From Minisyncoccota bacterium (GTDB lineage Bacteria; Verrucomicrobiota; Verrucomicrobiia; Limisphaerales; UBA8199), in the NCBI GenBank assembly GCA_035452965.1, contig DAOTCE010000006.1:109941-173940 (forward strand): a stretch of 64,000 bases of DNA, given 5' to 3'. The notes under the pieces were generated by a model. It made no database searches. It was given only the letters and a program-made list of their open reading frames with translations, and was not told the origin of the DNA. Shown piece after piece: positions 38,649 to 59,307 of the stretch (positions within the stretch are counted from its first letter, which is position 1; each line of letters starts with the position of its first letter). The position numbers and the translations under genes are program-made.

Positions 38649-40025
38649 TTACGCAGATTCGATTATCCAAGGCTCCCGCATCGCGCGGGAGCGGAGGCGG
38701 TTGGCCTCCGGGTCGTTGATGAACTCCTCTTTCACAGGGTCATACTTCATGTCGCGCTTGAGCCACATGCAGATGTTGGCGGCGTGCACGGTGGACATGG
38801 AGCGGTGCATGACTTCGGGATTGGCCACCGTGGGACGGCGCGACTTGATGCAGTCAAACAAGTTCCGCACATGGCTCATCGGGCGGCCCGTGCGCGCCAT
38901 GTAATCCTTGACCAGCTTGGAGAAGTCGGCCAGCAGCGCGGGCGATGAGGCTTCCGGCTTGGAGTAGCCGTCGGCCACTGCCACCCACCCTTCCGAGCCC
39001 TCGTAGCGGACCCCGCACGAGCCGTGCCACCACTGCTCGCCGCGGGATAGAATCATCTTCACGCCGTTGGGAAAGACGGTAACCATGCCATCGCCCGTGG
39101 GGTTGTTGACGTAGCCGTAACGGACCGCAGAGGTATCCGCAGCCCCCATCGCGACTTGGCATTGCCCGAAGGTGTGGGCGCCCCACTCGCCGATGCAGCT
39201 GGTGTGAAAATCATAGTAGCCACGCCAGCCGCCGCGCGTGTAGGCGGCATTGTAAGGCCGCCAGGGACACGGCCCCAGCCACTGGTCCCAGTCCACCTCA
39301 TCCTTAGCCGGCTCGGGTTCGGCGGGCAGCCAATCGAATTTCATCTCGGCGGCATCCCACGGCGCGATATGCGCCCGAACCGTGTGCACCCGCCCCAGCC
39401 GGCCGGTGCGGAGCAGCTCGTTGGCGAAGGTGAAGTTGTCCTCGCTGAGCCGCTGCAGGCCGGTTTGGTAGATGCGCCCGTAGCGCCGCGCCGTCGCGAC
39501 GACCGCCTGCCCCTCGGCGATGGTCATCGAAGACGGCTTTTCGGAATAGACATCCTTGCCCGCGCGCATCGCCATGACGGAGGCGGTCGCATGCCAGCGG
39601 TCCCCCGTCGCGATAAGCACCGCGTCAATGTCCGTGCGCCGGGCCAGAAAGTCGCGCATGTCGCGATACATCGCACAATCCTTGTTGCCATACTGCTCGT
39701 CCACCAGCCGCTTGATGGCCTCGCGCTGGGACTTCTTCGCATCGCAGATGGCGACGAACTGCACATCCTTCTCCGGCAGCATCCACTTTAAGACCCCGGT
39801 GCCTCGCCCGCCAACGCCCAGCCCCCCAAGCACAATCCGCTCGCTCGGCGGCACCAATCCATTCCGCCCCAGCGCCGAGGCCGGGATGAACCAGGGCGCG
39901 GCCACCGCACCACCGGCGACCACAGCGCGCCGAAGAAAATCCCGGCGGGTTAAGCCTGCCCCCCAGGAGCTACTGGGGGACAGACCGGACGGCCCAGTTG
40001 AAGGAGAAGGCTTCTGCTTAGACAT
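38649..40025 (-). CDS. Gfo/Idh/MocA family oxidoreductase with TAT signal
   Basis: LTRRDFLRRAVVAGGAVAAPWF, GLGVGGRGTG Rossmann motif, YSEKPSS motif. Confidence 0.85.
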   Translation of the reverse strand: MSKQKPSPSTGPSGLSPSSSWGAGLTRRDFLRRAVVAGGAVAAPWFIPASALGRNGLVPPSERIVLGGLGVGGRGTGVLKWMLPEKDVQFVAICDAKKSQREAIKRLVDEQYGNKDCAMYRDMRDFLARRTDIDAVLIATGDRWHATASVMAMRAGKDVYSEKPSSMTIAEGQAVVATARRYGRIYQTGLQRLSEDNFTFANELLRTGRLGRVHTVRAHIAPWDAAEMKFDWLPAEPEPAKDEVDWDQWLGPCPWRPYNAAYTRGGWRGYYDFHTSCIGEWGAHTFGQCQVAMGAADTSAVRYGYVNNPTGDGMVTVFPNGVKMILSRGEQWWHGSCGVRYEGSEGWVAVADGYSKPEASSPALLADFSKLVKDYMARTGRPMSHVRNLFDCIKSRRPTVANPEVMHRSMSTVHAANICMWLKRDMKYDPVKEEFINDPEANRLRSRAMREPWIIESA

Positions 40026-40200
40026 TAGCGGAGCCTAACAGCCTCGCTCCGCCAGACGCAAAACTTTTCCCACTGCTGGCGTAATCCCTCAGTCAGCCAC
40101 GGCCGCTTCGTCGAGGCGGCCAAACGGTGGGCCACTCTACGCAAACCAGGCGGTCGAATCGGTTACCGGCCGGAATCCGCCCCCGCTGCCCACGCCAGTC

Positions 40201-40374
40201 ACACCGAATACTCACCGTATACTCACCGTATCATCACCGTGGATACAGCCTTGACATCCGAGGTAAATTCCAGCGTACACCGCTGTCGTTACGCAACTTA
40301 CACGAATTCGGGCCCGGAATGGGCGCTCTTTACAGCACCATCCATGCAAACCACTGCAACGATTCAACTTGCAC
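40201..40374 (+). repeat. conserved non-coding element, copy B (four phased 11-bp repeats + TTGACA + distal conserved block)
   Basis: ACACCGAATAC / TCACCGTATAC / TCACCGTATCA / TCACCGTGGATAC (40201-40246). TTGACA at 40251-40256. 91 nt later comes AAACCACTGCAACGATTCAACTTGCAC (40348-40374). Oriented toward the oxidoreductase gene at 40501. Confidence 0.7.
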
Positions 40375-40500
40375 AGCCTCTGGCACCGATTGGTCCCCGC
40401 GCTGCCCAGCAGTCCTGCCGGACAAAGTCCGACACGAGAAAGGAGTTGAGGCGGGAGCCGCTTTCCCCTAATAGATATTCAAACGATAAAGCAAACGATC

Positions 40501-42006
40501 ATGAACTTCACACGCCGTAATTTCCTCAAGGCGACCGCCATGGGCGCCGCTGCACTCACCTTTGACGCTCGCATCTGGAGCCGGGCCGCCGGCGCGAACG
40601 GCGACATCCGGGTTGCGCAGGTTGGCCTCCGGAGCCAGGGTGCCGGTCACATCAAGACCTTAAGCAAGTTGAAAGGCGTGCGCCTCGTGGCCCTCTGCGA
40701 CGTGGACCGGCATGTGCTCGATGCCAAAGCCCAGGAACTGGGTGGCGGAATCCAGACCTACACCGACATCCGCAAGCTGCTTGAAAACAAGGACGTGGAC
40801 GCCATTTCCATCGCCACGCCAAACCATTGGCACGCCCTGGGAACTGTTTGGGCGTGTCAGGCGGGCAAGGACGTCTATGTGGAGAAGCCCGCATCGCACA
40901 ACATGTTCGAGGGCCGGCAAATGGTCGAGGCGGCCCGCAAGTACAAACGCATCGTCCAGTGCGGCACACAGTGCCGTTCTTCAGCGGGACTGCAGCAAGC
41001 CGTGGAATACGTGCGCGGCGGCAGTCTGGGCAAGATCGTCCTCGCCCGCGGCTTCTGCTACAAAGCCCGCAAGAGCATTGGCCTGGTGGACGGCCCGCAA
41101 CCCGTGCCCGATTACATTGATTACGACCTCTGGTGCGGCCCGGCTCCGAAAGACCCCCCGCGCCGCAACACCAGTTTTGGCACGATCCACTACGATTGGC
41201 ACTGGTTCTGGAACTACGGCAACGGCGACTACGGCAACCAGGCCCCGCACCAGGTGGACATCGCGCGCTGGTTCCTGGGCGAAACGGCCATCGCGCCTTT
41301 CTCCCTCGCCGTCGGAGGACGCCTGGGCTACCGGGACTCCGCGGAAACGCCCAACACCCTCGTCGTCTATCACGGCTACAAAACGCCGCTCTTGTTCGAG
41401 GTGCGCGGCCTGCCGCAGGACAAAGCGTCCCAGGAGCAAGGTTGGAACATGGACAAATACAAGGGCGTGGGCGTGGGCAACGTCATCGAGTGCGAACAGG
41501 GTTACGTCGTGGTCCCCAGCTACACCGAGGCCATCGTTTATGACAAGTATAACAAGGAAATCACCCGCTTCACTGGCAAGCGGAGGAGCAATGTCCCGGA
41601 CCTGAAGACCCCAGTCGGGCTGACAGCCGAATCCGGCGGCCACCATGGCAACTGGATCGCCGCAGTCCGGAGCCGGAGAAGCAAAGACCTGCACGCGGAG
41701 ATCCTGGAGGGCCATCTTTCGGCCGGCCTCGTCCACACCGGAAACATCTCCTACCGCCTCGGCGCGCGAAAGGCGCCGGGCGAAATCAAGGAAGCGCTCG
41801 CCGACAACCGGAGCCTGACCGAAGCCTACAACCGCATGGCCGGCCACCTGGACGCCAACGGCGTGGACATCACCAAAGACAATGTGCAGCTGGGCATGCC
41901 GCTGAAGTTCGATCCCCGGAAGGAGCGCTTCGTGGACAACGCACAGGCCAACGAACTGCTCAGCCGCAATTACCGCCCGCCGTTTGTCGTTCCGGCCAAG
42001 GTCTGA
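40501..42006 (+). CDS. Gfo/Idh/MocA family oxidoreductase with TAT signal
   Basis: MNFTRRNFLKATAMGAAALT, VGLRSQGAGH, YVEKPAS motif, 501 aa. Confidence 0.85.
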   Translation: MNFTRRNFLKATAMGAAALTFDARIWSRAAGANGDIRVAQVGLRSQGAGHIKTLSKLKGVRLVALCDVDRHVLDAKAQELGGGIQTYTDIRKLLENKDVDAISIATPNHWHALGTVWACQAGKDVYVEKPASHNMFEGRQMVEAARKYKRIVQCGTQCRSSAGLQQAVEYVRGGSLGKIVLARGFCYKARKSIGLVDGPQPVPDYIDYDLWCGPAPKDPPRRNTSFGTIHYDWHWFWNYGNGDYGNQAPHQVDIARWFLGETAIAPFSLAVGGRLGYRDSAETPNTLVVYHGYKTPLLFEVRGLPQDKASQEQGWNMDKYKGVGVGNVIECEQGYVVVPSYTEAIVYDKYNKEITRFTGKRRSNVPDLKTPVGLTAESGGHHGNWIAAVRSRRSKDLHAEILEGHLSAGLVHTGNISYRLGARKAPGEIKEALADNRSLTEAYNRMAGHLDANGVDITKDNVQLGMPLKFDPRKERFVDNAQANELLSRNYRPPFVVPAKV

Positions 42007-42038
42007 TTCAGGTCCCGCCGCCGCCGCCGGCGCGTCTC

Positions 42039-42163
42039 AGAGCCTGTTTGAAAATGCCAGTCTAACGCCGGGTGTGGACACCCGGCCTGCAGGGAATCGG
42101 CGAAAAGGCGCCATCCTGTGGGCCCGGACCCCTGACCGGGCGAATTCTCAAACAAGGTCTCAG
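42039..42163 (+). repeat. 125-bp MITE/REP-like element, copy 1
   Basis: 120 of 125 positions identical to 52996-53120, in the same orientation. Imperfect terminal inverted repeats (AGAGCCTGTTTGAAAAT ... ATTCTCAAACAAGGTCTCAG). Internal hairpins CCGGGTG-NNNN-CACCCGG and GCCCGGAC-CCCT-GACCGGGC. The 3' end overlaps the stop codon of the convergent gene 42160..43506. Confidence 0.75.
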
Positions 42164-43506
42164 CCCTTCGACGGCTGCGGGTGCACCCACGGAGCACGGT
42201 AGGGCCGCTCCAAGAGCCGGTTGGCTTCATCGTCGCCGATGATCCTGCCCGCGGCGGCATCCCACGCGAAGCTGCGGCCCAATTTCATGGACAGGTTTGC
42301 CAGGATGCACGCGGTGCTTGAAATGTAGCCTTGCTCGATGTCCGCAACCGGCTTGCCGCGGGACGCAATGGCGGCCAGGAAGTCTCTCATGTGGCCACGA
42401 ATCGCAGGGGCGACTTGCTTCTCCAGGTCCTTCTCGTCGCGGTCCTCGGGATACTGGTCGAACTCCATCGTGACCTCGCGATGGACGGGCTGGCCGTTGC
42501 CGGTGGGCGCGAACGTGTAGCTGTTGATGCTCGCCTTCAGGTTGCCCTTGTCCCCCCAGAACGTAACACCCCAAGGGTAACGCGGGTCCGGTGACTGGCC
42601 CCAGCGGCGGTGCTGCCAGACCACCTGCAGGTCGCCGAAGTCGAACACAGCCGTCTGCGTGTCCGCGATGTTGGCCTTGCGGCCCTTTCTCATGATGATG
42701 CCGCCGGAGGAACTGACCGTCCGGGGCGAGCCCAGGTCGAGCATCCAGCGGGCGGCGTCAAGCATGTGGATGCACAGGTCGCCCACGGTGCCGTTGCCAT
42801 ACTCCATGAACGAGCGCCAGCCGCGGGGATGCTTCATGCGGTTGTAGGGCCGCATGGGGGCCGGGCCAGTCCACATCTCCCAGTCGAGGTGGTCGGGCGG
42901 ATCGCTGTCCTCCGGGTCAGGCCCGGCACCGCCGCCGTAATAGCTGTAGATTTCCACCAGGCCCACCTTGCCCAGCTTCCCCTCGCGGATGATGGTGTCC
43001 CGCGCTTCGATCAGGTGCGGCGTGCTGCGGCGCTGGGTGCCCACCTGCACCACCCGCCCGTGCTTGCGCGCGGCGGCCAGCATGGCTTGCCCCTCGATGA
43101 TGTCCACGCTGATCGGCTTTTGCACATAGACGTCCGCCCCCGCCTCGACCGCGGCAATCATCGGCAGCGCGTGCCAATGGTCGGGCGTGGCGATCAGGAC
43201 AATGTCCAGGTCCTGCTCGCGGAGCATCTGCCGGTAGTCATGGTAGGTGCGAGGCTTCTTTTTCGAGGCTTGGCGCGAGGCGACAATGTCCGCCGCGCCG
43301 GCCAGCATCCGTTGGTCCACGTCGCAGAGCGAGACGACCTCGACCGGGGCCACCTGGATCAGGCGCAGCAAGTCGCACTTGCCGTACCAGCCGCAGCCGA
43401 TGAGGCCAACGCGCTTCCGCTGCTCGGCGAACTCAGCGGCATAACTGCCGAGGGCGGACAACGCCAATCCCGCCGCGCCAGCCTGGAGGAATTCCCTTCG
43501 GTTCAT
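42160..43506 (-). CDS. Gfo/Idh/MocA family oxidoreductase with TAT signal
   Basis: Track ORF 42160..43542. The internal ATG 43506 gives MNRREFLQAGAAGLALSALG. GLIGCGWYG Rossmann motif, YVQKPIS motif. Confidence 0.85.
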   Translation of the reverse strand: MNRREFLQAGAAGLALSALGSYAAEFAEQRKRVGLIGCGWYGKCDLLRLIQVAPVEVVSLCDVDQRMLAGAADIVASRQASKKKPRTYHDYRQMLREQDLDIVLIATPDHWHALPMIAAVEAGADVYVQKPISVDIIEGQAMLAAARKHGRVVQVGTQRRSTPHLIEARDTIIREGKLGKVGLVEIYSYYGGGAGPDPEDSDPPDHLDWEMWTGPAPMRPYNRMKHPRGWRSFMEYGNGTVGDLCIHMLDAARWMLDLGSPRTVSSSGGIIMRKGRKANIADTQTAVFDFGDLQVVWQHRRWGQSPDPRYPWGVTFWGDKGNLKASINSYTFAPTGNGQPVHREVTMEFDQYPEDRDEKDLEKQVAPAIRGHMRDFLAAIASRGKPVADIEQGYISSTACILANLSMKLGRSFAWDAAAGRIIGDDEANRLLERPYRAPWVHPQPSKG

Positions 43507-43593
43507 GCGGGTCGTTTTACGGCCAACCACACCCCAGCGCAAGCCCTGACTCCCCTGCCGCCCGCGAGCGTGCTCCGTTAGCCTGAAACAGGA

Positions 43594-44506: not shown

Positions 44507-44836
44507 TCAGTAAATCTCCACGTCCTTGGTCACCGCCGGCGTGCCGTGACTGGCGGCCAGCTCCAGCGATTTCTTCGGGCACACCTCCACGCAGCAGCCG
44601 CACGTGATGCACAGCAAGCGGTCGATCGCCCACTCCTTCCTAGCGCGGTTTACCACCAGCGCGCCGGTGGGGCACTTCTTGGCGCAGACGTTGCAATAGA
44701 CGCAGGTGTCTTTGGTGAAGACCAGCCACCCGCGGGAGCCGGCCAGCTCGCGCCGCGGCTCAAAGGGGTAGCGGCTCGTCGGCGGTTTGGTCAGCGCCCA
44801 CTTGAGGGCCAGCCGGGACATTTCGAAATAGGCCAT
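44507..44836 (-). CDS. 2x[4Fe-4S] ferredoxin subunit of group 4 hydrogenase (EchF/HycF/NuoI-like)
   Basis: Track ORF 44507..44872. ATG 44836 lies 4 nt after the large-subunit stop. Two cluster motifs: CVYCNVCAKKCP and CITCGCCVEVCP. Confidence 0.8.
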   Translation of the reverse strand: MAYFEMSRLALKWALTKPPTSRYPFEPRRELAGSRGWLVFTKDTCVYCNVCAKKCPTGALVVNRARKEWAIDRLLCITCGCCVEVCPKKSLELAASHGTPAVTKDVEIY

Positions 44837-44840
44837 AAGA

Positions 44841-45917
44841 TCACCGTTCGGTGCAACTGATACAGGGGTCAATGGTGAGCACCAGCACCGGCACGTCCGC
44901 CAGCTCGCAGCCCTGCAGCATCTTCACCAGGGCCGGCAGGTTGGCAAACGTGGGCGTGCGCACGCGAAAGCGCTGGATGTGCTTCGTGCCGTCCGCTTTC
45001 ACACAATACGCCACCTCGCCCCGCGGCTGCTCGGTGCGCGCGATGAACTCACCGTTGGGATTGCCCGCCACCTTCACCGCGATCTCCCCCGCCGGCATCC
45101 GCGCGACGGCCTCGCGGATCAGATTGATGGATTGGAACAGCTCGTCGCATCGGACGGCGCAGCGGGCGTAGGAGTCGCCGTCCGTGTGCGTGACCGGCTC
45201 GACGGGCAGATCCTTGAAAGCGGCGTAGCCCAACTGGCGCATGTCCTGGGCCACCCCGCTGGCGCGCGAGGTCGGGCCGACGCACCCCAGGTCGCGGGCG
45301 TCCTGACGCGTTAACACGCCCACTCCGCAGAGGCGGCTTTTGACGGAATCGTCGCGGATGAAGACCTTGGTAAGGTCACGGAGGTCCGCCTCGATCTGGC
45401 CCAGGTCCGCCAGCATGGCCTGGAGGCCGGCGGCGTCAATGTCCCGCCGTACGCCGCCGATTTTGCAGGAGCCGAAGATGACGCGTCCGCCGGCCGTGGC
45501 CTCGATGATATTGAGGACGCGCTCGCGCACGCGCCAGGAATGCATGAACAGGCTTTCAAAGCCCACGGCGTCCGCCATGAGCCCCAGCCAGAGCAGATGG
45601 CTGTGCAGCCGGGAGAGCTCGCCCCAGATCGTCCGGAGGTAAAGGGCGCGCGGCGGCACCGCCACGTTCATGATCGTTTCCACCGCCTGGCAGTAGGTCT
45701 GGCCATGAATAAAGCTGCAAATGCCGCAGATGCGCTCCGCGACATAGACAAACTCGACATAGTCCTTCTTCTCGACCAGCTTCTCCAGGCCGCGGTGAAT
45801 GAAGCCGATGGAGGGGCGCGCCTCGACTACTCTTTCGTCCTCGACCACCAGGTCGAGGTGGATAGGCTCGGGCAGCACCGGGTGTTGCGGACCAAAGGGT
45901 ATGATCGTGCGGGCCAT
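44841..45917 (-). CDS. [NiFe]-hydrogenase large subunit, group 4 (EchE/HycE/NuoD-like)
   Basis: Track ORF 44841..46112. The internal ATG 45917 gives MARTIIPFGPQHPVLPEP.... N-terminal Ni-Fe ligand motif RICGICSFIHG. C-terminal DPCISCTER sits at the very end of the protein, so there is no cleavable extension. Confidence 0.85.
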   Translation of the reverse strand: MARTIIPFGPQHPVLPEPIHLDLVVEDERVVEARPSIGFIHRGLEKLVEKKDYVEFVYVAERICGICSFIHGQTYCQAVETIMNVAVPPRALYLRTIWGELSRLHSHLLWLGLMADAVGFESLFMHSWRVRERVLNIIEATAGGRVIFGSCKIGGVRRDIDAAGLQAMLADLGQIEADLRDLTKVFIRDDSVKSRLCGVGVLTRQDARDLGCVGPTSRASGVAQDMRQLGYAAFKDLPVEPVTHTDGDSYARCAVRCDELFQSINLIREAVARMPAGEIAVKVAGNPNGEFIARTEQPRGEVAYCVKADGTKHIQRFRVRTPTFANLPALVKMLQGCELADVPVLVLTIDPCISCTER

Positions 45918-45927
45918 GGCGTGCGGG

Positions 45928-46350
45928 TCAGTGTTTGGCGGCTGCGGGGGGAGGGTTGGCGACTGGAGGCGCGGCCGCAGGCTTTGCCACGGGGACTTTG
46001 GTCGTGCCGAACGGGAACTTGACCGCGGTCTCGTAGAAGTGGCCATGGAAATCCACCGCCATGCCGTCCACCTGGACGCCGAACAGGTCGTGGACCTCGT
46101 TTTCATAGACAAACGCGCACCAGTAAATCCCGCTGATGCTCGGCACCCGGGCCGCCGTGGCCGGCAGGTGCAGGCGCAGATTGGCCAGGCGGCTGTCGCG
46201 ATCGAAGCTGTAGGTCAGCTCGATTTGCTCCGGCAGGCGCGTGGCACCGATCTGCACCAGCCGGTATCCTTGTTTGTGCATTGTGCCTGCCCGCTCCAGG
46301 AGGGCCGACACGGGTATGATCTCAAAAGTCTGGGCTGGTCCGTTGCTCAT
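45928..46350 (-). CDS. NuoC/EchD-like hydrogenase subunit
   Basis: ...IELTYSF...YWCAFVYENEVHDLFGVQVDG... (NuoC 30-kDa family signature), Pro/Ala-rich tail. The start overlaps the upstream stop as ATGA. Confidence 0.7.
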   Translation of the reverse strand: MSNGPAQTFEIIPVSALLERAGTMHKQGYRLVQIGATRLPEQIELTYSFDRDSRLANLRLHLPATAARVPSISGIYWCAFVYENEVHDLFGVQVDGMAVDFHGHFYETAVKFPFGTTKVPVAKPAAAPPVANPPPAAAKH

Positions 46351-47348
46351 TTTACGTTTTTGGTTGTTGCGGGCGCCGGCGCGCGCTCCTTTTGCAGGAA
46401 CACCCAGTTGATGTGGGGCGTGAAGGGCTCAGTCCGCAAAACCTGGTAGCCGGTGTGGGTGAGCTGGAAGAGGTTGCGCTTGCTTTGATGGCCCGTCTTC
46501 GCCTCGAAGCGTTGAACGTCGGGAAAGGCATTTTCAATCTCTCGCAGCAGCCGCCGGCCGATGCCCCGGCCTCGAAAATAGGGGTGGACAATCACCCGGC
46601 GGATGTAGGCGGTGGCACCGATGGCGAAGCCGCGCACGGAGCCGATGATCTTGCCGTTGACCACGGCCTTGAGAAAGACAATTTGGTCCGCGTCCGGGTG
46701 GGTGTCTTCCGCCGCCGGGGCATGGGCCAGGACCGCCACCCGCTCGGGCGTGCGCTCGAAGTCGGCCAACAGGTCGGCCAGGGTCTGTTGCAGTGGGGGC
46801 AAACTGTCGTCCCCATACAGCTCCGCCTCGCTCTGGTAGGCGATCTTTTGCAGGGCCAGAATCTCCGGCGCATCGCTCTTGTCGGCCCGCAGGTAGAGGG
46901 TTTGGTCGAGGCTGTTGGCCAGGGCCTTCATTTCGCGGTGCTTGGCCTCCAGCACGGCCAAGGCTTTGACCACGCCGTCAATGATGGCCTCCGGCCGCGC
47001 GGCGCAACCGGGCACGTAAACGTCCACCGGGATGACGCTATCCACCCCGCCCGAGACGTTGTAGCAATCCCGGAAGATGCCGCCGCTGCAGGCGCAGATG
47101 CCCACCGCGACCACGACTTTGGGCTCGGGCAACTGGTGGTAGATGTTGCGGATGACCGCCTGGCTTTGCGGGTTGACGGCTCCGGTGACCAGGAAGATGT
47201 CCGCGTGCTTGGGGTTGCCCATGTTAACGACCCCCAGGCGCTCGACGTCGAAGAGCGGCGTCAGGCAGGCCAGCGTCTCGATGTCGCACCCGTTGCAGCT
47301 CGAGGCGTCGTAGTGGATGATCCAGGGTGATTTTTTGATGCCGTGCAT
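46347..47348 (-). CDS. hydrogenase small subunit (NuoB/EchC-like) fused to a C-terminal GNAT N-acetyltransferase domain
   Basis: Single 333-aa ORF. Residues 1-~150 carry SCNGCDIE, VGICACSGG and VPGCAARPE (proximal 4Fe-4S ligands). Residues ~165-320 carry NGKIIGSVRGFAIGATAYIRRVIVHPYFRGRGIGRRLLREIE (GNAT motif A, R-x-x-G-x-G). Confidence 0.8.
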   Translation of the reverse strand: MHGIKKSPWIIHYDASSCNGCDIETLACLTPLFDVERLGVVNMGNPKHADIFLVTGAVNPQSQAVIRNIYHQLPEPKVVVAVGICACSGGIFRDCYNVSGGVDSVIPVDVYVPGCAARPEAIIDGVVKALAVLEAKHREMKALANSLDQTLYLRADKSDAPEILALQKIAYQSEAELYGDDSLPPLQQTLADLLADFERTPERVAVLAHAPAAEDTHPDADQIVFLKAVVNGKIIGSVRGFAIGATAYIRRVIVHPYFRGRGIGRRLLREIENAFPDVQRFEAKTGHQSKRNLFQLTHTGYQVLRTEPFTPHINWVFLQKERAPAPATTKNVK

Positions 47349-47366: not shown

Positions 47367-48224
47367 CTACAGGTGCCGCAGCCAGGAAAGCACCAGGATA
47401 TTGCCAAAGCCCAGCACCAGCGCCACGACCCACGCGCTGCGGAGGGCGGTTTGCCATTTGAGCCGGGCAAACACGTTGTCCACCAGGATCACGAACCCGA
47501 ACACCGCCAGCGACACCAGCACCCCGAGCAGCGGGGAGGCGGCGAAGAAGAGGTAAACCCAGCCCAGCAGGAACACCGTCTCATACCAGTGCGCGATCTC
47601 GATCATCGCCAGCGCCCGCCCCGAGAATTCGGTCGTGAGGCCGCGCACCAGCTCCTGGTGGGCGTGGTGCGAGCTGGAGAGGTCGAACGGCGATTTGCGG
47701 AACTTGATCTCCAGCGTGTAGAGGAAGCCCAGGAAAATGCCGGGCAACGCCAGCACCAGGAGCGTGGGATGGGCGGCGATGTCGTGCACGTAGAAGCTCC
47801 GGGTGACCAGGTACATCCCGATGGCGGTCAACAGCACCATTGGCTCGTAGGCCATTAACTGGATGAGCTCCCGCTGCGCGCCGACAAAGCTGTAGGGCGA
47901 GCTGGCTTTGCAGGCAGCCAGCACGAAGAAGATGGCCGCCAGCGTCAGCGCAAAAATCACCAGCAGCAGGTCCGACCCGGCGAAGAACAGCGCCCCGGTG
48001 AAGATCACCAGCAGCAGGAAAAAGAAGATGTAGAAGTTCTGCGAGCGGCGGACGACGACGTTTTCCTTTTGCCACAGCTTCAGCACATCGTAGAACGGCT
48101 GGAGCAGGGGCGGACCGCGCCGCGCCTGCATGCGCGCCGAGAGGCGCCGGTCCCACCCGGCCAGCAGGCCGCCCAGCAGGGGCGCCCCCACCAGGAAGAT
48201 GATGAGTCGAAGCCAGGGGCTCAT
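47367..48224 (-). CDS. NuoH/EchB/HycD-like membrane subunit
   Basis: Track ORF 47367..48302. The internal ATG 48224 overlaps the upstream stop (ATGA). ...RRGPPLLQPFYDVLKLWQKE... and about 8 TM helices. Confidence 0.8.
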   Translation of the reverse strand: MSPWLRLIIFLVGAPLLGGLLAGWDRRLSARMQARRGPPLLQPFYDVLKLWQKENVVVRRSQNFYIFFFLLLVIFTGALFFAGSDLLLVIFALTLAAIFFVLAACKASSPYSFVGAQRELIQLMAYEPMVLLTAIGMYLVTRSFYVHDIAAHPTLLVLALPGIFLGFLYTLEIKFRKSPFDLSSSHHAHQELVRGLTTEFSGRALAMIEIAHWYETVFLLGWVYLFFAASPLLGVLVSLAVFGFVILVDNVFARLKWQTALRSAWVVALVLGFGNILVLSWLRHL

Positions 48225-50101
48225 AGCATCGGCCACACGGCCGCGGCCGCCAGGAGCACCAGCAGGGCCGCGGCGCAAATCACGCCGCCGCGCGCCAGCC
48301 ACGCCTCGCTCAACAGGCCGTGCAGGTGGTAGTTGTTGGTCGCCACGTCATGCTCGGTGTTGCCCGCGCCCAGGAAGCGCGTGCTGCTGTGCAGGTTGGC
48401 CCCGCCCAGGTAGGCGTCTGTGACCCGGACCCCGCGCCCGTAGTTGATGAAGCTGAGCGGGAAGAGCAGAATCATCACCATCATAATGGTCATGATGACC
48501 ACGTTGCCGTGGGTCAACACGCCGCATTGCCCGTAAACGGACACCACGTAGGGCTGGATGAGCCAGGCCGAGATGAGCGGAAACAGCAGGCAGGCCAGGG
48601 CCGTGACCACGGACAGGCCGGACAGCGCGATGTTCTGGCCCAGGGCCAGCGTTTGCGCGACCGCTTGCCGGGGCCGCTGGACCTCGAGCAGTTTGCCGAT
48701 CCACTTGACCCAGAAGAACAGCGTGGCCGCGCTGCCGAAGACTAGGAAGATGGAGAGGGACGGGGCGGCGTCCACTACCGCTTTGAGCACGGCCCATTTG
48801 CTGATCAGCATGCCGAAGGGGGCCAGGAACATGCCCGCCATCCCCAACTGCATCATCACCGCCACCCGCGGCATGTTCAGAACCAGGCCGCTCATCGCCT
48901 CGATGTCGCGGCTGTGCAGGCGGTGCTCCACCACCCCGACGCAGAGGAAGAGCAGGCACTTGGCCGCCGCGTGGAAAATGATCAGCAGGATGCCCGCCCA
49001 CACCGCCTCGTGCGTTCCGATGCCGCCGCACAGCACGATCAAGCCCAGATTGGCGATGGTGGACCACGCCAGCACCTTCTTTGCGTCGCTGGTGGTGATG
49101 GCGGCCAGGGAGCCCGCCAGGAACGTCACCGCGCCCACCAGGGCCACCAGGTAACCCACCGCCGTCCCGGTGACCACCGGCGCCATGCGCAGCACCAGGT
49201 AAACGCCGGCTTTGACCATCGTGCTGGAGTGCAGCAGGGCGGAGATGGGCGTGGGCGCGACCATGGCGCCGAGCAGCCAGCTTGAGAAGGGCAGTTGCGC
49301 CGACTTGGTGATGCCCGCGAAACAGAGCAGCGCGGCCGGCAGCAGGGCCAGCGAATGTTGGGAGCCGGCGAGCGTCCGCAGCTCGATGCTCCCGCTTTGG
49401 CGCGCAAACCAGGCGATCGCCAGCGCGAACCCCAGCCCCCCGGCCAGGTTCATCACCAGCGCCCGCAGGGCGTTGGCCCGCGCCTCTTGCGTCCCCGTGT
49501 AGCCGATCAGCAGGAAGGAGCACAGCGTCGTGATTTCCCAGAACAGGAACAGCCAGAGCAGGTTGTTGCTGAAGATGAGGCCGAACATGGCGCCCGTGAA
49601 GATGAACAGCAGCCCGAAGAACAGCGGCCGCCGGTCCGGCACTTCGGGATGGGCCGCCCGGTGATACTCGCGCATGTAGCCCAGCGCGTAGAGGCATATC
49701 CCCCCGCCCACCAGGCCGTTGATCAGGGCCATGGTGATGGACAGCTTGTCCGCCAGGAGATTGTGCGCGGCCTTCAATTCCGCCCCGTGCGCCCATTCCA
49801 GCCAGGCCATCAGCCCCGCCTGGGCCAGCATCAGCCCCACGATCCACGGGCGCCGCGCCCGCAGGCCCACGTAAATCACGTAGAGCCCCATGGCCCCTTC
49901 GATCGCCATGAGCGCGGCGTTCAGCCAGTGATAATCCAGCGGCAGGAGGTCCGGCGCGGGCAGCACCGCCAGCGCCAGCACCCCGGCGCAGATCAGCAAC
50001 GTGACGGCGCTAACCAGAATCTTGCGAAACGGGTCGGACTTCAACCACAGCAGCCCCGCACCAGCGGCGATGGGGCCGAGAATTAATGCTGGAACAAGCA
50101 T
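48221..50101 (-). CDS. NuoL/EchA/HyfB-like antiporter-type membrane subunit
   Basis: Track ORF 48221..50578. The internal ATG 50101 gives MLVPALILGPIAAG.... Conserved ...PISALLHSSTMVKAGVYLVLR.... The upstream 159 codons are Pro/Ala/Arg-rich and overlap the divergent GH20 gene. Confidence 0.8.
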   Translation of the reverse strand: MLVPALILGPIAAGAGLLWLKSDPFRKILVSAVTLLICAGVLALAVLPAPDLLPLDYHWLNAALMAIEGAMGLYVIYVGLRARRPWIVGLMLAQAGLMAWLEWAHGAELKAAHNLLADKLSITMALINGLVGGGICLYALGYMREYHRAAHPEVPDRRPLFFGLLFIFTGAMFGLIFSNNLLWLFLFWEITTLCSFLLIGYTGTQEARANALRALVMNLAGGLGFALAIAWFARQSGSIELRTLAGSQHSLALLPAALLCFAGITKSAQLPFSSWLLGAMVAPTPISALLHSSTMVKAGVYLVLRMAPVVTGTAVGYLVALVGAVTFLAGSLAAITTSDAKKVLAWSTIANLGLIVLCGGIGTHEAVWAGILLIIFHAAAKCLLFLCVGVVEHRLHSRDIEAMSGLVLNMPRVAVMMQLGMAGMFLAPFGMLISKWAVLKAVVDAAPSLSIFLVFGSAATLFFWVKWIGKLLEVQRPRQAVAQTLALGQNIALSGLSVVTALACLLFPLISAWLIQPYVVSVYGQCGVLTHGNVVIMTIMMVMILLFPLSFINYGRGVRVTDAYLGGANLHSSTRFLGAGNTEHDVATNNYHLHGLLSEAWLARGGVICAAALLVLLAAAAVWPML

Positions 50102-50337: not shown

Positions 50338-52278
50338 TTGAACGGCTTGGTATTGCTTCCTTATCCCCGCTGGGTGCGGCGTTTGCCGGGATGTTACCGG
50401 CTGCCGCAGCGCGGGGTGCTGCACCTGGACGCCGGGCTGCCGCGGGAGCGGGTGCTGTGGCCCGTGGCGGCGCGGGTGAAGTCGGCGGCGGCGGAGGCGG
50501 GGGTCGAGCTGGAGGTAGCAACGGGACCGGCGCAGCATCCGCGGCTGGCGATTCGCGCGGTGCAGAGCGCCGCCGCACCGGCCCAAGCCCAGGGATATGA
50601 GCTGCGCATCGGTTCGGATGGGGTGACGTTGTTGTACCGGGAGGAAGGGGGGTTGCGGGCGGGAACGGCGACGCTGCGCCAGTTGTTGCGCGGGCACGGG
50701 CGGCGGCTGCCGCGGGTGCGGATTCGGGATTACCCGGATTTCGCGCGGCGGGGAGTGATGCTGGATGTGTCGCGCGGACGGGTGCCCCGCCTGGACACGT
50801 TGCTGGAGCTGGCCGGGGACCTGGCTGATTTCAAGGTCAATGAGCTGCAGCTTTACACGGAGCACACGTTCGCTTACCGGAACTACGAGCCAGTCTGGCG
50901 CGGCTGGGGGCCGTTGACAGGCGAGGACATTTTGCGGCTGGACGCGCGGTGCCGCGAGCTGGGGATTGATTTGGTGCCCAATCAAAACTCGTTCGGGCAT
51001 TTGCGGTATTGGCTGGCCTACCCGCCGCTCCGGAAGCTGGCGGAGGTGCGCGCGCCTTACGCCTGCGCGGGCGGCGCGTATCTCCGCTACCCGGCGACGC
51101 TGGCCCCGAACCATCCGGACACCCTGCCCTTCCTGCGCGGGCTTTATGACGAGCTGCTGCCGCATTTCAGCAGCGGGCGGTTCAATGTCGGTTGCGACGA
51201 GACGTGGGACCTCGGGCGCGGCCAAAGCCGGCGGCTTTGCCAGGCTAAAGGGGCCGGTCGGGTGTATGTGGATTTCTTGAAGCAAGTGCACCGGGAAGTC
51301 TCGGCGCGCGACCGGCGGATGATGTTTTGGGGGGACATGATGTTGAAACACCCCGAGCTGGTGCGGGAGCTGCCGCGGGAGATGGTCGCGCTGGCCTGGG
51401 GCTACGAGGCAACTTACCCGTTCGCGGTCGAGGCGGAACGGTGGGCGCAAGCCGGGCACCCGTTTTACGTCTGCCCCGGGACGTCCACGTGGATGAGCCT
51501 GATCGGGAAGCATGACGTGGCGTTTGCCAACTTGCGCCAGGCGGCGGCCGCGGGGTCCCGCCACGGGGCGCAGGGTTACTTGAACACGGATTGGGGCAAC
51601 GGCGGGCACCCGCAGCCGCTGGCGGTGAGCTACCTGCCGTATCTGCTCGGCGCGGCGCTGAGCTGGTGCGCGGCGACGGCGGATGAGCGGCTGCTGGTGC
51701 CGGTGATCAGCCGGGATGTGTTCCAGGATCCCAGCCGGCGCCTGGCCGAGGCGGCGCTGGGGCTGGGCTGGGCGCACCGGAAGTTCGAGTATTGCGCGCT
51801 GAACGTTACGCCGTTCGGGGCGGTGATCGCCGCGCCGCGCCCGCGCACCGGGGAGCTGGATTGCCGGGACGGGCTGAAGTATTACGCGCGCATTCCGGCG
51901 GCGAAGGTCCGCGCGGCGCTGGAGGAGGTGGAGAGGCTGCGGGGGACGCTGCCGCGCGCGCCCGCGTCCGGCCGCCGGGGGGAGATGTTCGCGCTGGAGC
52001 TGGACCTGGCGGCGCGGATGGCGGCGGAGTCGTGCCGGATCATGCTCTGGCAGCAGGCGGTCGCCGGGGGAGGAGGGCCGGGGGCGCGGCGGCTGGCCCG
52101 CGCAGGCGTGCGCGCTTTGGACGAACTGGACCGGGAGTTTCGCCGATACTGGCCGCGGCGGAACAAGGGCACCACCGCAAAGTGCTCGACATTCCTGCAG
52201 TGGCGGAGGGAAGATTACCGGCGCGGCACGGTTCATTTTGCGCCGGAGGCGGCGCGGGTTCCGGAGCCGGCACTGTGA
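50338..52278 (+). CDS. glycoside hydrolase family 20-like protein (beta-N-acetylhexosaminidase-like), no signal peptide
   Basis: TTG start. GYELRIG...GLRAGTATLRQLL (GH20b-like), RGVMLDVSRG and the catalytic-type motif FNVGCDET ([HN]-x-G-x-D-E). The 770-aa minus-strand ORF 50122..52434 is its Pro/Arg-rich antisense shadow. Confidence 0.7.
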   Translation: MNGLVLLPYPRWVRRLPGCYRLPQRGVLHLDAGLPRERVLWPVAARVKSAAAEAGVELEVATGPAQHPRLAIRAVQSAAAPAQAQGYELRIGSDGVTLLYREEGGLRAGTATLRQLLRGHGRRLPRVRIRDYPDFARRGVMLDVSRGRVPRLDTLLELAGDLADFKVNELQLYTEHTFAYRNYEPVWRGWGPLTGEDILRLDARCRELGIDLVPNQNSFGHLRYWLAYPPLRKLAEVRAPYACAGGAYLRYPATLAPNHPDTLPFLRGLYDELLPHFSSGRFNVGCDETWDLGRGQSRRLCQAKGAGRVYVDFLKQVHREVSARDRRMMFWGDMMLKHPELVRELPREMVALAWGYEATYPFAVEAERWAQAGHPFYVCPGTSTWMSLIGKHDVAFANLRQAAAAGSRHGAQGYLNTDWGNGGHPQPLAVSYLPYLLGAALSWCAATADERLLVPVISRDVFQDPSRRLAEAALGLGWAHRKFEYCALNVTPFGAVIAAPRPRTGELDCRDGLKYYARIPAAKVRAALEEVERLRGTLPRAPASGRRGEMFALELDLAARMAAESCRIMLWQQAVAGGGGPGARRLARAGVRALDELDREFRRYWPRRNKGTTAKCSTFLQWRREDYRRGTVHFAPEAARVPEPAL

Positions 52279-56579: not shown

Positions 56580-56658
56580 AATGCTGGTTGGCGGCTCCGG
56601 TCGCGGGTTCAGCCAATCGGGTCGGCCGGACGGCGCCGGCAGATCGGCGCTGCGCCGC

Positions 56659-59307
<2,649 letters not shown>

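Follow-up and report, generated by a model that had tools for sequence, protein, structure and literature searches.

Organisation of the locus

The window, a 64,000-nucleotide stretch of contig DAOTCE010000006.1, carries a six-gene echABCDEF operon, the third gene of which encodes a NuoB/EchC-type small subunit joined to a GNAT domain (Table 1). The original prediction had described one unbroken 333-codon ORF at the canonical EchC position; both points hold, and the strand, which had not been given, is minus. All of the motifs quoted for the two halves are found in the translation: SCNGCDIE (aa 17-24), GICACSGG (aa 83-90) and PGCAARPE (aa 113-120) in the small subunit, and YIRRVIVHPYFRGRGIGRRLLREIE (aa 248-272) and SKRNLFQLTHTGYQVL (aa 289-304) in the GNAT domain. 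The translational coupling proposed for the next gene is also there, as the stop codon of the fusion overlaps the echD start in an ATGA at 46350..46347 (minus), and the echB ATG overlaps the echA stop in the same manner. The echA product starts with MLVPALILGP; the mechanical ORF that reaches 50578 is over-extended, and the 626-aa version is the one called on independent contigs. There, gene calls of 626, 285, 333, 140, 358 and 109 aa recover the same six-gene operon. A scan of the operon for sigma-70 promoters and terminators returned nothing exceeding chance.

Table 1. Genes of the ech operon and features of the EchC-GNAT fusion, with positions in the window
Feature	Position	Strand	Details
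echA, NuoL/Mrp-antiporter-like membrane subunit	48221..50101	minus	626 aa; Pfam Proton_antipo_M 2.4e-54
echB, NuoH-like membrane subunit	47367..48224	minus	285 aa; Pfam NADHdh 1.4e-42; start refined
echC-GNAT fusion gene	46347..47348	minus	333 aa; ATG start, TGA stop, uninterrupted ORF
NuoB/EchC-type small-subunit domain, aa 1-135	46944..47348	minus	Pfam Oxidored_q6 5.9e-30
End of long C-terminal helix and short hinge, aa 136-150	46899..46943	minus	AF2 helix 119-147
GNAT domain, aa 151-322	46383..46898	minus	Pfam GNAT families; AF2 pLDDT ~90
GNAT insert between alpha2 and beta2, aa 198-221	46686..46757	minus	Predicted disordered, pLDDT ~57
beta4/acetyl-CoA pyrophosphate P-loop, V254-H-P-Y-F-R259-G-R-G262-I-G264	46557..46589	minus	Matches consensus Q/R-x-x-G-x-G/A
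L296 codon, alpha4 general-acid Tyr position	46461..46463	minus	Tyr in stand-alone relatives
echD, NuoC-like subunit	45928..46350	minus	140 aa; Pfam Complex1_30kDa 1e-8
echE, [NiFe] large subunit (NuoD-like)	44841..45917	minus	358 aa; Complex1_49kDa 2.3e-56, NiFeSe_Hases 3.4e-12
echF, 2x[4Fe-4S] ferredoxin-like subunit (NuoI-like)	44507..44836	minus	109 aa; Pfam Fer4, Fer4_7; start refined

An Ech-type hydrogenase

Ech is the group 4e energy-converting [NiFe]-hydrogenase, represented by EchA-F of Methanosarcina barkeri, Caldanaerobacter/Thermoanaerobacter tengcongensis and Desulfovibrio gigas. The window operon shares with it the echABCDEF gene order, the Pfam family of each subunit, the NiFe motifs of EchE, the four-Cys small subunit and the 2x[4Fe-4S] EchF. 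The six-subunit echA-F composition required of group 4e is present (by Pfam for each gene, with the same order in related fused loci). EchE, read in translation, carries the required RxCGxCxxxH and DPCxxCxxR ligands as RICGICSFIH near its N-terminus and DPCISCTER near its C-terminus, with no C-terminal extension. The small subunit has the four cysteines for one proximal [4Fe-4S] cluster (C18, C21, C85 and C115), and all 307 of the 307 fused protein clusters keep every one of them. EchE is 60.5% identical to its counterpart in a Caldanaerobacter MAG, 58% to that of Desulfovibrio and 64% to that of Methanoculleus, in loci with the same six-gene order, and the fused clade nests among same-order Ech loci in a neighbor-joining (NJ) tree. 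Judging from its sequence, the operon encodes a true Ech-type [NiFe]-hydrogenase of six subunits, probably one of group 4e. It is predicted to be functional, given the invariant Cys ligands, the EchE NiFe motifs and the 58-64% identity of EchE to Ech.

Architecture of the fusion protein

A Pfam search of the fusion protein places Oxidored_q6 on aa 18-128 (E 5.9e-30) and Acetyltransf_1 on aa 217-278 (6.9e-11), with weaker GNAT matches to Acetyltransf_7 (1.4e-9) and Acetyltransf_10 (1.8e-6); every NCBIfam match falls far under its cut-off. The best sequence matches of aa 1-135 are MbhJ (6cfw_J, 1.4e-42) and HycG (7z0s_G, 1.4e-36), and Foldseek agrees. The in-frame joining of an EchC-type small subunit to a GNAT fold is therefore upheld by Pfam, AF2, Foldseek and independent contigs. 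Fifteen contigs from independent assemblies, ENA ERZ27257456 and Logan SRR5007150 among them, encode the identical 333-aa protein, so the fusion is not an assembly error; nor is it an annotation merge, which the original prediction had already rejected.

The junction had been placed at about 46850-46900; it exists, but lies slightly upstream, at the end of the long C-terminal helix and a short hinge (Table 1). K136, M140, S146 and D148 are conserved in this linker across the fused clusters. Two AF2 monomer runs (pTM 0.58 and 0.54) gave no confident packing between the domains, and the hinge has a pLDDT <50 in the second model.

The GNAT topology is full (beta1-alpha1-alpha2-beta2-beta3-beta4-alpha3-beta5-alpha4-beta6-beta7, from the AF2 secondary-structure order of aa 151-321), as the superfamily fold demands, and Foldseek TM scores (target) against solved GNATs are 0.64-0.78, with matches including 3f0a, 1tiq and 3ld2. 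The insert between alpha2 and beta2 varies by lineage from 0 to 30 aa across fusions. Purifying selection acts on the GNAT part, whose dN/dS of 0.02-0.19 is in the same range as that of the FeS domain. In the GNAT superfamily, the consensus Gln/Arg-x-x-Gly-x-Gly/Ala, located before alpha3, forms the site for the acyl-CoA pyrophosphate (PMC4964394). It is retained in 97-99% of the 307 fused clusters (R/Q259 in 300, G262 in 299 and G/A264 in 304).

The GNAT domain had been called complete-looking. This stands for the fold and the acetyl-CoA loop but not for the usual catalytic set, as the window protein has Leu (L296) in place of the general-acid Tyr of alpha4. Across the 307 fused clusters this position is L in 149, Y in 111, F in 31 and M in 11, so Tyr is lost in 196. 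It is retained in the fusions of Spirochaetia, Kiritimatiellales and Lentisphaerae and in part of those of Opitutaceae. Among the fusions, the early-branching, ancestral-type lineages retain the Tyr, and the clade of the window has Leu. A Pontiellaceae protein (P0380) is an example of a Tyr-type orthologue. Only ~62% of characterised GNATs use a general-acid Tyr, and hence it is not universal (PMC4964394).

Distribution of the fusion

The architecture is not the singleton it might have been. Public sequence data contain ~300 protein clusters (at 90% identity) with this fusion in an operon of the same kind, and the species-level genomes that carry it number at least 71, from several phyla. The hosts are Verrucomicrobiota, Kiritimatiellales, Lentisphaerae, some Planctomycetota, Spirochaetia and Omnitrophica; all are uncultured, and no search turned up a cultured carrier. 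In three protein searches all matches carry PF01058, and all but two also carry GNAT families. The echABC(GNAT)DEF context is present at 38 of 38 loci in a first genome scan and at 72 of 78 in a GNAT-seeded scan; wherever the fusion looked split, a contig end or a frameshift was the cause. NCBI names the fused proteins plain "NuoB", and 'ech hydrogenase subunit C' is used too; under such names the GNAT domain is missed in metabolic reconstructions. Some fusions carry the JGI label 'Ni,Fe-hydrogenase III small subunit/GNAT superfamily N-acetyltransferase'.

When all data are used, the fused loci fall into a single group in the EchE tree, as do the fused domains in the GNAT tree. A single origin has weak bootstrap support, with 41 of 100 replicates in the EchE tree and 37 of 100 in that of the GNAT, and the NJ bootstrap rises from 37-41% to 72% when Spirochaetia are left out. 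In 119 ech loci without the fusion, this GNAT never occurs in the vicinity, which gives no sign of a looser association before fusion. The fusion marks a distinct variant of Ech, echA-B-C::GNAT-D-E-F.

Neighborhoods of the fused operons were searched for pyruvate:ferredoxin oxidoreductase (PFOR), hyp and ferredoxin genes, and no consistent neighbor was found; a HypB-like gene occurs at three loci only. There is no PFOR gene within the window or in the conserved neighborhoods.

Stand-alone relatives of the GNAT domain

The fused domain is 40-50% identical to an uncharacterised family of stand-alone GNATs of 150-170 aa, throughout which its motifs are common (consensus EILALQKxAYxSEAxxYxDxxIPPLxQTLEEL...GSVR...GRLIVHPxxQxRGIG...FTGxxSxxNLxLYxKxGY). 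The two share the P-loop and the alpha1-alpha2 region, which includes the acceptor site and is near-identical between them. The fused domain has its origin in this widespread stand-alone family. The stand-alone proteins differ in keeping the alpha4 Tyr (59 of 69 relatives) and in having L/F for W315, D/E/A for Y257 and C for A247. Near-invariant residues that are specific to the fusions are N231, H255, Y257, F258 and W315, with K136, M140 and D148 in the linker. The top 'stand-alone' matches, P0122-P0129, were dropped as free GNATs: they are fusion fragments with linker starts and EchC cluster mates, which makes the count of 59/69 conservative.

Stand-alone members occur in Chloroflexota (within a trp operon), Methanobacterium, Acidobacteria, Nitrospirae and Bathyarchaeia. 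The same family is also fused to TrpF, TrpC, NUDIX, DUF3592 and further GNATs, and is thus a promiscuous fusion partner. When a sequence profile was used to look for a characterised relative, the structures that came up were all distant and mostly uncharacterised, the nearest being 2ATR (3e-13), VipF (6WQB), YpeA (2PDO) and RibT (5XXR).

Comparison with known systems

Canonical EchC proteins have ~140-165 aa and stop soon past the last helix, whereas the helix of the fusion runs into a GNAT domain of 170-190 aa. MbhJ of the Pyrococcus furiosus MBH (6CFW) and HycG of the E. coli formate hydrogenlyase (7Z0S) are the closest matches in sequence and fold over aa 1-135. HycG (250-255 aa), like the fusion, has a C-terminal extension of its own past the NuoB fold, but the extension of neither protein is a GNAT, and we know of no acyl-CoA site in them.

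Accessory subunits of mitochondrial and respiratory complex I include NDUFA9 (an SDR fold with NADPH), NDUFA10 (a kinase fold) and NDUFAB1 (an acyl carrier protein), and plant complex I has gamma-carbonic anhydrases as enzyme-derived accessory subunits. As in the fusion, a metabolic-enzyme fold, with or without its cofactor, sits on a complex-I-type module, and a functional analogy is possible. However, the accessory subunits are separate eukaryotic polypeptides and the GNAT domain is covalently attached to a bacterial hydrogenase NuoB homologue; homology is not implied. In Elp3, which acts in tRNA modification chemistry, a GNAT/KAT domain is joined to a [4Fe-4S] domain of the radical-SAM type. 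It likewise combines iron-sulfur and acetyl-CoA-binding GNAT domains on one polypeptide, but its FeS domain is of the radical-SAM type rather than an electron-transfer NuoB fold, and the kinship is limited to the GNAT superfamily.

Possible roles of the GNAT domain

A functional GNAT domain is predicted from its dN/dS, a P-loop kept by no fewer than 97% of the 307 clusters, the AF2 fold and the conserved acceptor region. Our preferred reading, tentative and at something short of an even chance, is that it works as an accessory module on the cytoplasmic arm of the hydrogenase, binding acetyl-CoA or CoA for acetylation or for sensing of the pool. The domain might acetylate a nearby amine, which could belong to a subunit, to a partner such as ferredoxin or to the ancestral substrate; or it might sense the acetyl-CoA pool. 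Either way, ferredoxin-driven H2 production would be tied to acetyl-CoA. By textbook knowledge, fermenters of this kind usually obtain their reduced ferredoxin from pyruvate:ferredoxin oxidoreductase, which yields acetyl-CoA alongside it. The functional idea of the original prediction, regulation by acetyl-CoA or self-acetylation, is speculative but compatible with these observations. The Leu at the Tyr position makes binding/sensing or Tyr-independent catalysis more likely in the window clade than classical general-acid catalysis. The fusion-specific near-invariant residues and the single groups in the EchE and GNAT trees suggest integration rather than accident. Counting against the reading are the lack of a PFOR gene in the window and in conserved neighborhoods, the missing Tyr of the window clade, the readiness of the GNAT family to fuse with unrelated enzymes, the low confidence of the inter-domain packing and the weak bootstrap values.

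A stronger version, in which the acetyl-CoA pool would directly gate the whole Ech clade of PVC bacteria, Spirochaetia and Omnitrophica, is unlikely. In it, the GNAT domain would acetylate a lysine or the N-terminus of the hydrogenase module or a ferredoxin partner, or would act allosterically, and ion-pumping, ferredoxin-driven H2 production would be switched by the product of pyruvate:ferredoxin oxidoreductase. Among candidate acetylation sites, EchE has no lysine specific to the fused clade, only nine other clade-specific residues. If true, gating would provide the first metabolite-sensing or acyl-transfer module within a complex-I-type energy converter.

The domain may instead be an ordinary acetyltransferase that acts on the substrate of its stand-alone relatives and is attached to EchC for co-expression, stoichiometry or membrane-proximal localisation alone, leaving the hydrogenase unaffected. 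The identity to those relatives, with the acceptor alpha1-alpha2 region and most motifs in common, their broad occurrence, the promiscuity of the family and the AF2 models without confident inter-domain contacts all favor this. As the acceptor region is shared with stand-alone relatives in organisms that lack Ech, it argues against a hydrogenase-specific target. Yet the fusion has been retained at the same operon position in several phyla with no re-splitting seen, this GNAT is missing from the vicinity of non-fused ech loci, the fusion-specific invariant residues and conserved linker point to a domain adapted to the complex, and the largest clade has lost the catalytic Tyr with selection still strong. 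We give this account a minor chance.

Somewhat less probable still is a structural role, in which the GNAT fold was co-opted as a pseudoenzyme to stabilise or shield the peripheral arm and any CoA would be a structural cofactor only. The loss of the canonical Tyr in most fused clusters, the window's included, would fit, as would the invariant fusion-specific surface or core changes (Y257, W315 and N231) and the direct joining of the domain to the last FeS-domain helix. The P-loop and acceptor region are nevertheless conserved as in the active-looking stand-alone enzymes, and several lineages keep the Tyr. Its limited use among characterised GNATs (PMC4964394) means that its loss is no proof of inactivity.

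It is very improbable that Met140 in the linker acts as an internal start, giving a free GNAT of ~194 aa besides or in place of the fusion. M140 is present in 285 of 307 fused clusters and missing from non-fused EchC, and some gene callers gave 160-194-aa products with linker starts (for example P0121 and P0122). However, the replacements of M140 by L, I and T fit a hydrophobic helix position, and the short calls are accounted for by contig ends and frame errors. No convincing ribosome-binding site precedes it (a GGAGG 14 nt upstream is imposed by Leu-Glu codons), and the sigma-70 scan gave no internal promoter.

An artefact, whether a frameshift, a lost stop or an assembly chimera joining echC to an adjacent GNAT gene, can be set aside as next to impossible, given the same ORF in independent assemblies, hundreds of orthologous fusions (57-89% identical, all in frame) and purifying selection that spans the junction itself; nothing at this locus favors it, and only a related one (L006/P0117) has a false 'triple fusion' made by frameshifts in a long-read MAG. 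That 488-aa EchC-GNAT-EchD protein, whose GNAT C-terminus is frameshifted, was dropped as a guide for docking.

Implications

The original prediction knew of no earlier account of a group 4 hydrogenase bearing an acyltransferase module, and we found no description of the EchC-GNAT fusion in the searchable literature. Of the refuting condition that the original prediction had set, an architecture already common and described, the first half holds, at ~300 clusters, and the second, as far as the searchable literature reaches, does not. It is apparently a conserved yet undescribed Ech variant, hinting at a possible link between acetyl-CoA and hydrogen metabolism. Should the GNAT domain be a mere passenger or a structural add-on, the fusion would be a well-documented but modest variant of domain architecture.

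Respiratory complex I has its simplest relatives in Ech and the rest of the group 4 hydrogenases, which hold a central place in fermentative and syntrophic H2 metabolism. The fusion has been retained over long evolution, and its carriers are abundant bacteria of peat, lakes and sediments (Verrucomicrobiota, Kiritimatiellales, Lentisphaerae and others); many of the MAGs come from the SPRUCE and Stordalen sites. Protein-level regulation of group 4 hydrogenases is hardly known, and the predicted acetyl-CoA-binding domain may offer a testable handle on how these organisms tie H2 to carbon flux.

An Ech-type operon with a fused small subunit

The echC-GNAT gene, which joins a NuoB/EchC-type small subunit to a GNAT domain, is a single reading frame of 333 codons, uninterrupted from ATG to TGA, and is third among six same-strand echABCDEF genes, the canonical EchC position. 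Its stop and the echD start share an ATGA overlap, and echA and echB overlap in the same way, so at least two operon junctions are translationally coupled. In all of these respects the original prediction of a translationally coupled, in-frame fusion stands, and the motifs that it quoted are all present (aa 17-24, 83-90, 113-120, 248-272 and 289-304). Pfam places Oxidored_q6 at aa 18-128 (E 5.9e-30) and Acetyltransf_1 (6.9e-11), Acetyltransf_7 (1.4e-9) and Acetyltransf_10 (1.8e-6) at aa 217-278; NCBIfam assigns the N-terminal half to NuoB-family models only and the C-terminal half to GNAT models at sub-threshold scores.

Features of the window, with refined ech starts; the last column gives mechanical ORFs over-extended at the 5' end (all on the minus strand)
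Feature	Position	Strand	Description	Over-extended ORF
echA	48221..50101	-	NuoL-like, 626 aa	48221..50578
echB	47367..48224	-	NuoH-like, 285 aa, ATGA-coupled to echA	47367..48302
echA/echB overlap	48221..48224		ATGA	
echC-GNAT	46347..47348	-	fusion, 333 aa	
M140 codon	46929..46931		linker helix of the fusion	
echD	45928..46350	-	NuoC-like, 140 aa	
echE	44841..45917	-	NuoD-like [NiFe] large subunit, 358 aa	44841..46112
echF	44507..44836	-	2x[4Fe-4S], 109 aa	44507..44872
Gfo/Idh/MocA-type oxidoreductases	38649..43542		three paralogues, 458, 501 and 460 aa, twin-arginine-like signals	
GH20 hexosaminidase-like gene	50338..52278			
gyrA/gyrB	53913..59187			
Very large ORF	12406..18270	-	1954 aa, signal-like N-terminal sequence	

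Such 5' over-extension of mechanical ORFs is typical of high-GC DNA, and the refined starts match gene calls on independent contigs for all six proteins. EchE carries RICGICSFIH and a C-terminal DPCISCTER. Full-length comparison gives 58-64% identity with the EchE proteins of Caldanaerobacter, Desulfovibrio and Methanoculleus genomes that share this operon. Gene content, EchE motifs and EchE identity mark this as a genuine Ech-type (group 4e-like) hydrogenase operon, with every sequence-level Ech hallmark that could be tested present.

The oxidoreductase genes adjoin the operon, with the GH20 and gyrase genes on its other side, and these surroundings fit a polysaccharide-degrading verrucomicrobial genome. 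The window's two nearest relatives encode a second [NiFe]-hydrogenase large subunit (N-terminus MPRTITLDPVTRIEGHLRIDVEV) a few kb downstream of ech (L001 14416..16098, L004 11407..13089); at that place the window carries a LeuD-like gene and the Gfo/Idh/MocA oxidoreductases. No hyp genes occur within the window; a His-rich HypB-like protein of the nickel-insertion GTPase type lies near fused ech at three loci only (L008 3751..4623, L014 3792..4631, L021 12493..13302).

Reality and novelty of the fusion

The echC::GNAT fusion is confirmed as real, widespread and under selection. The identical 333-aa protein occurs with the same neighbours on 15 contigs of independent assemblies (e.g., ENA ERZ27257456 and Logan SRR5007150), and all of the best 120 clusters from a search of 5.8 billion proteins combine PF01058 with GNAT families (73-89% identity, about 334 aa). 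These independent contigs and numerous orthologous fusions vindicate the earlier claim that the gene is not an annotation merge. Searches seeded with Planctomycete-type and Kiritimatiellales-type fusions gave the same architecture picture. Three protein searches yielded 306 full-length fused clusters; in these and the window protein (307 in total), the four cluster-binding Cys are invariant. Between close orthologues, dN/dS is 0.02-0.19 for the GNAT parts and 0.04-0.36 for the FeS domain.

An apparent EchC-GNAT-EchD triple fusion (P0117, 488 aa; L006 8001..9464, from a long-read MAG and on the same contig as L178) is a frameshift artefact with the last third of the GNAT out of frame, and several short "GNAT-only" database entries were rejected as free GNATs because they are fragments of fusions. 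Separately, a deltaproteobacterial MAG joins EchC directly to an EchD/NuoC-like domain without a GNAT (L041 8001..8850, 283 aa).

Databases name the fused proteins "NADH-quinone oxidoreductase subunit NuoB" or "ech hydrogenase subunit C", and a few JGI entries give both COG names. Literature searches outside subscription journals and InterPro architecture tables turned up no account of a hydrogenase small subunit with a GNAT domain; the architecture appears undescribed, in the sense of not found rather than proven absent. HycG of E. coli is likewise C-terminally extended, but its extension is not a GNAT. Complex I has enzyme-derived accessory subunits and Elp3 is an FeS-plus-GNAT protein, in both cases a functional analogy only.

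Distribution and origin

With the whole fusion protein as query against one genome per GTDB species, 38 fused loci were recovered, all labelled Verrucomicrobiota (Limisphaerales/subdivision 3, Opitutaceae), the exceptions being an unclassified bacterium and a contig that is probably mis-binned. A second scan used a profile built from the GNAT portion alone and found 78 loci, 72 of them fused within echA-B-C::GNAT-D-E-F and three truly stand-alone (Anaerolineales, Methanosarcinales, Bathyarchaeia). It added Kiritimatiellales/Pontiellaceae, Lentisphaeraceae, Tepidisphaeraceae, Planctomycetales, Spirochaetia and Omnitrophica as hosts. De-duplication left 71 separate fused loci whose EchE is complete. 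Across both scans and the protein search, all hosts were MAGs or metagenome contigs, with no cultured carrier seen. In the first scan, the closest non-fused EchC was from Lentisphaerae/Victivallis (74% identity over aa 1-139).

In a neighbour-joining EchE tree (72 fused-locus and 101 non-fused-locus sequences), a single clade holds all fused loci, with weak bootstrap (41/100, or 72/100 without Spirochaetia); its sister is non-fused Ech of Lentisphaerae, other PVC bacteria and Methanomicrobiales. Spirochaetia branch at the base of the clade, and the verrucomicrobial group encloses the Tepidisphaeraceae. The fused GNATs also form one group apart from 37 stand-alone relatives (bootstrap 37/100). 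The trees are consistent with, without proving, a single ancient fusion event and then vertical inheritance with some transfer. No GNAT of the same family lies within about 8 kb of ech at 119 non-fused loci, and the neighbourhoods of fused loci revealed no consistently linked genes. Labels or binning look wrong for L197, L205 and L212 (Akkermansia), whose Ech genes group with Kiritimatiellales, and for L034/L186 (Candidatus Acidoferrum), whose Ech genes group with Limisphaerales-type Verrucomicrobiota.

Fold and conservation of the GNAT domain

AlphaFold2 predicts a NuoB-like fold in the N-terminal part at lower confidence, as expected for a domain modelled without its cluster and partners, then a long helix (aa 119-147) and a complete GNAT topology (aa 151-321, pLDDT about 90), in line with the complete-looking GNAT first proposed. 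An insert predicted to be disordered (aa 198-221) varies by lineage. Neither of two runs placed the domains relative to each other with confidence (pTM 0.58 and 0.54; pLDDT below 50 at the hinge). Foldseek, with the halves matched separately, links the N-terminal half to HycG and MbhJ and the C-terminal half to many solved GNATs (target TM 0.64-0.78). The P-loop R259-x-x-G262-x-G264, kept in 97-99% of the 307 clusters, matches the GNAT consensus Gln/Arg-x-x-Gly-x-Gly/Ala (PMC4964394). The last helix of the Ech FeS small subunit leads at its end into a folded, selected GNAT whose acetyl-CoA loop is intact.

The window domain has the GNAT fold and P-loop and lacks the common alpha4 Tyr. This general-acid position is among those where fused and free domains differ most sharply: it is Tyr in 59/69 free forms, and in the fusions (n=307) Leu in 149, Tyr in 111, Phe in 31 and Met in 11. 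Tyr is kept in Spirochaetia (4/5), Planctomycetales/Omnitrophica (2/2), Kiritimatiellales (16/16), Lentisphaeraceae (8/8) and some Opitutaceae (4/7), so the ancestral fusion looks catalytically canonical. Leu, Phe or Met replaces it in the window's Limisphaerales-type clade (L296 in the window) and Leu in Tepidisphaeraceae. Strong constraint persists in the window's clade despite the loss of this one canonical residue. A Tyr of this kind serves in about 62% of characterised GNATs (PMC4964394), so its loss alone does not mean inactivity.

The parent family is large and consists of stand-alone GNATs of 150-170 aa, 40-50% identical to the fused domain (691 clusters at E below 1e-10 among 1.84 billion representatives). 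No characterised member was found, and among solved structures even the closest are distant (2ATR, VipF, YpeA, RibT). Other members are fused to TrpF (PRAI), TrpC (IGPS), NUDIX or DUF3592 (P0136, P0140, P0150, P0135, P0147) or to further GNATs, and a free copy lies in a Chloroflexota trp operon (L158 3995..4450), flanked by trpD and trpC/trpF. The Trp fusions and this copy suggest a possible link between the family and tryptophan biosynthesis.

Possible roles of the fused domain

Our tentatively favoured reading is that the GNAT is a working accessory module on the peripheral arm of Ech. It would bind acetyl-CoA or CoA, and may acetylate a nearby amine or report the acetyl-CoA pool to the complex. 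It is somewhat unlikely that the domain is instead a passenger enzyme with its ancestral substrate kept. The family's promiscuous fusions favour this reading, as does the shared acceptor region: nearly every motif is common to fused and stand-alone forms, including alpha1-alpha2, which usually gives the acceptor site its shape. Co-option as a structural domain or pseudoenzyme is unlikely; the lost Tyr favours it, as do N231, H255, Y257, F258 and W315, residues that are invariant or almost invariant in the fusions alone. M140, kept in 285/307 fused clusters and absent from non-fused EchC, may have a structural role or act as an internal start giving a free 194-aa GNAT. The latter is highly improbable; inspection found no supporting ribosome-binding site or promoter.

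For an acetyl-CoA-binding accessory module, metabolism offers a context. In saccharolytic anaerobes, pyruvate:ferredoxin oxidoreductase is the main source of reduced ferredoxin for Ech, and its other product is acetyl-CoA; a link between the fused hydrogenase and acetyl-CoA is plausible, if unproven.
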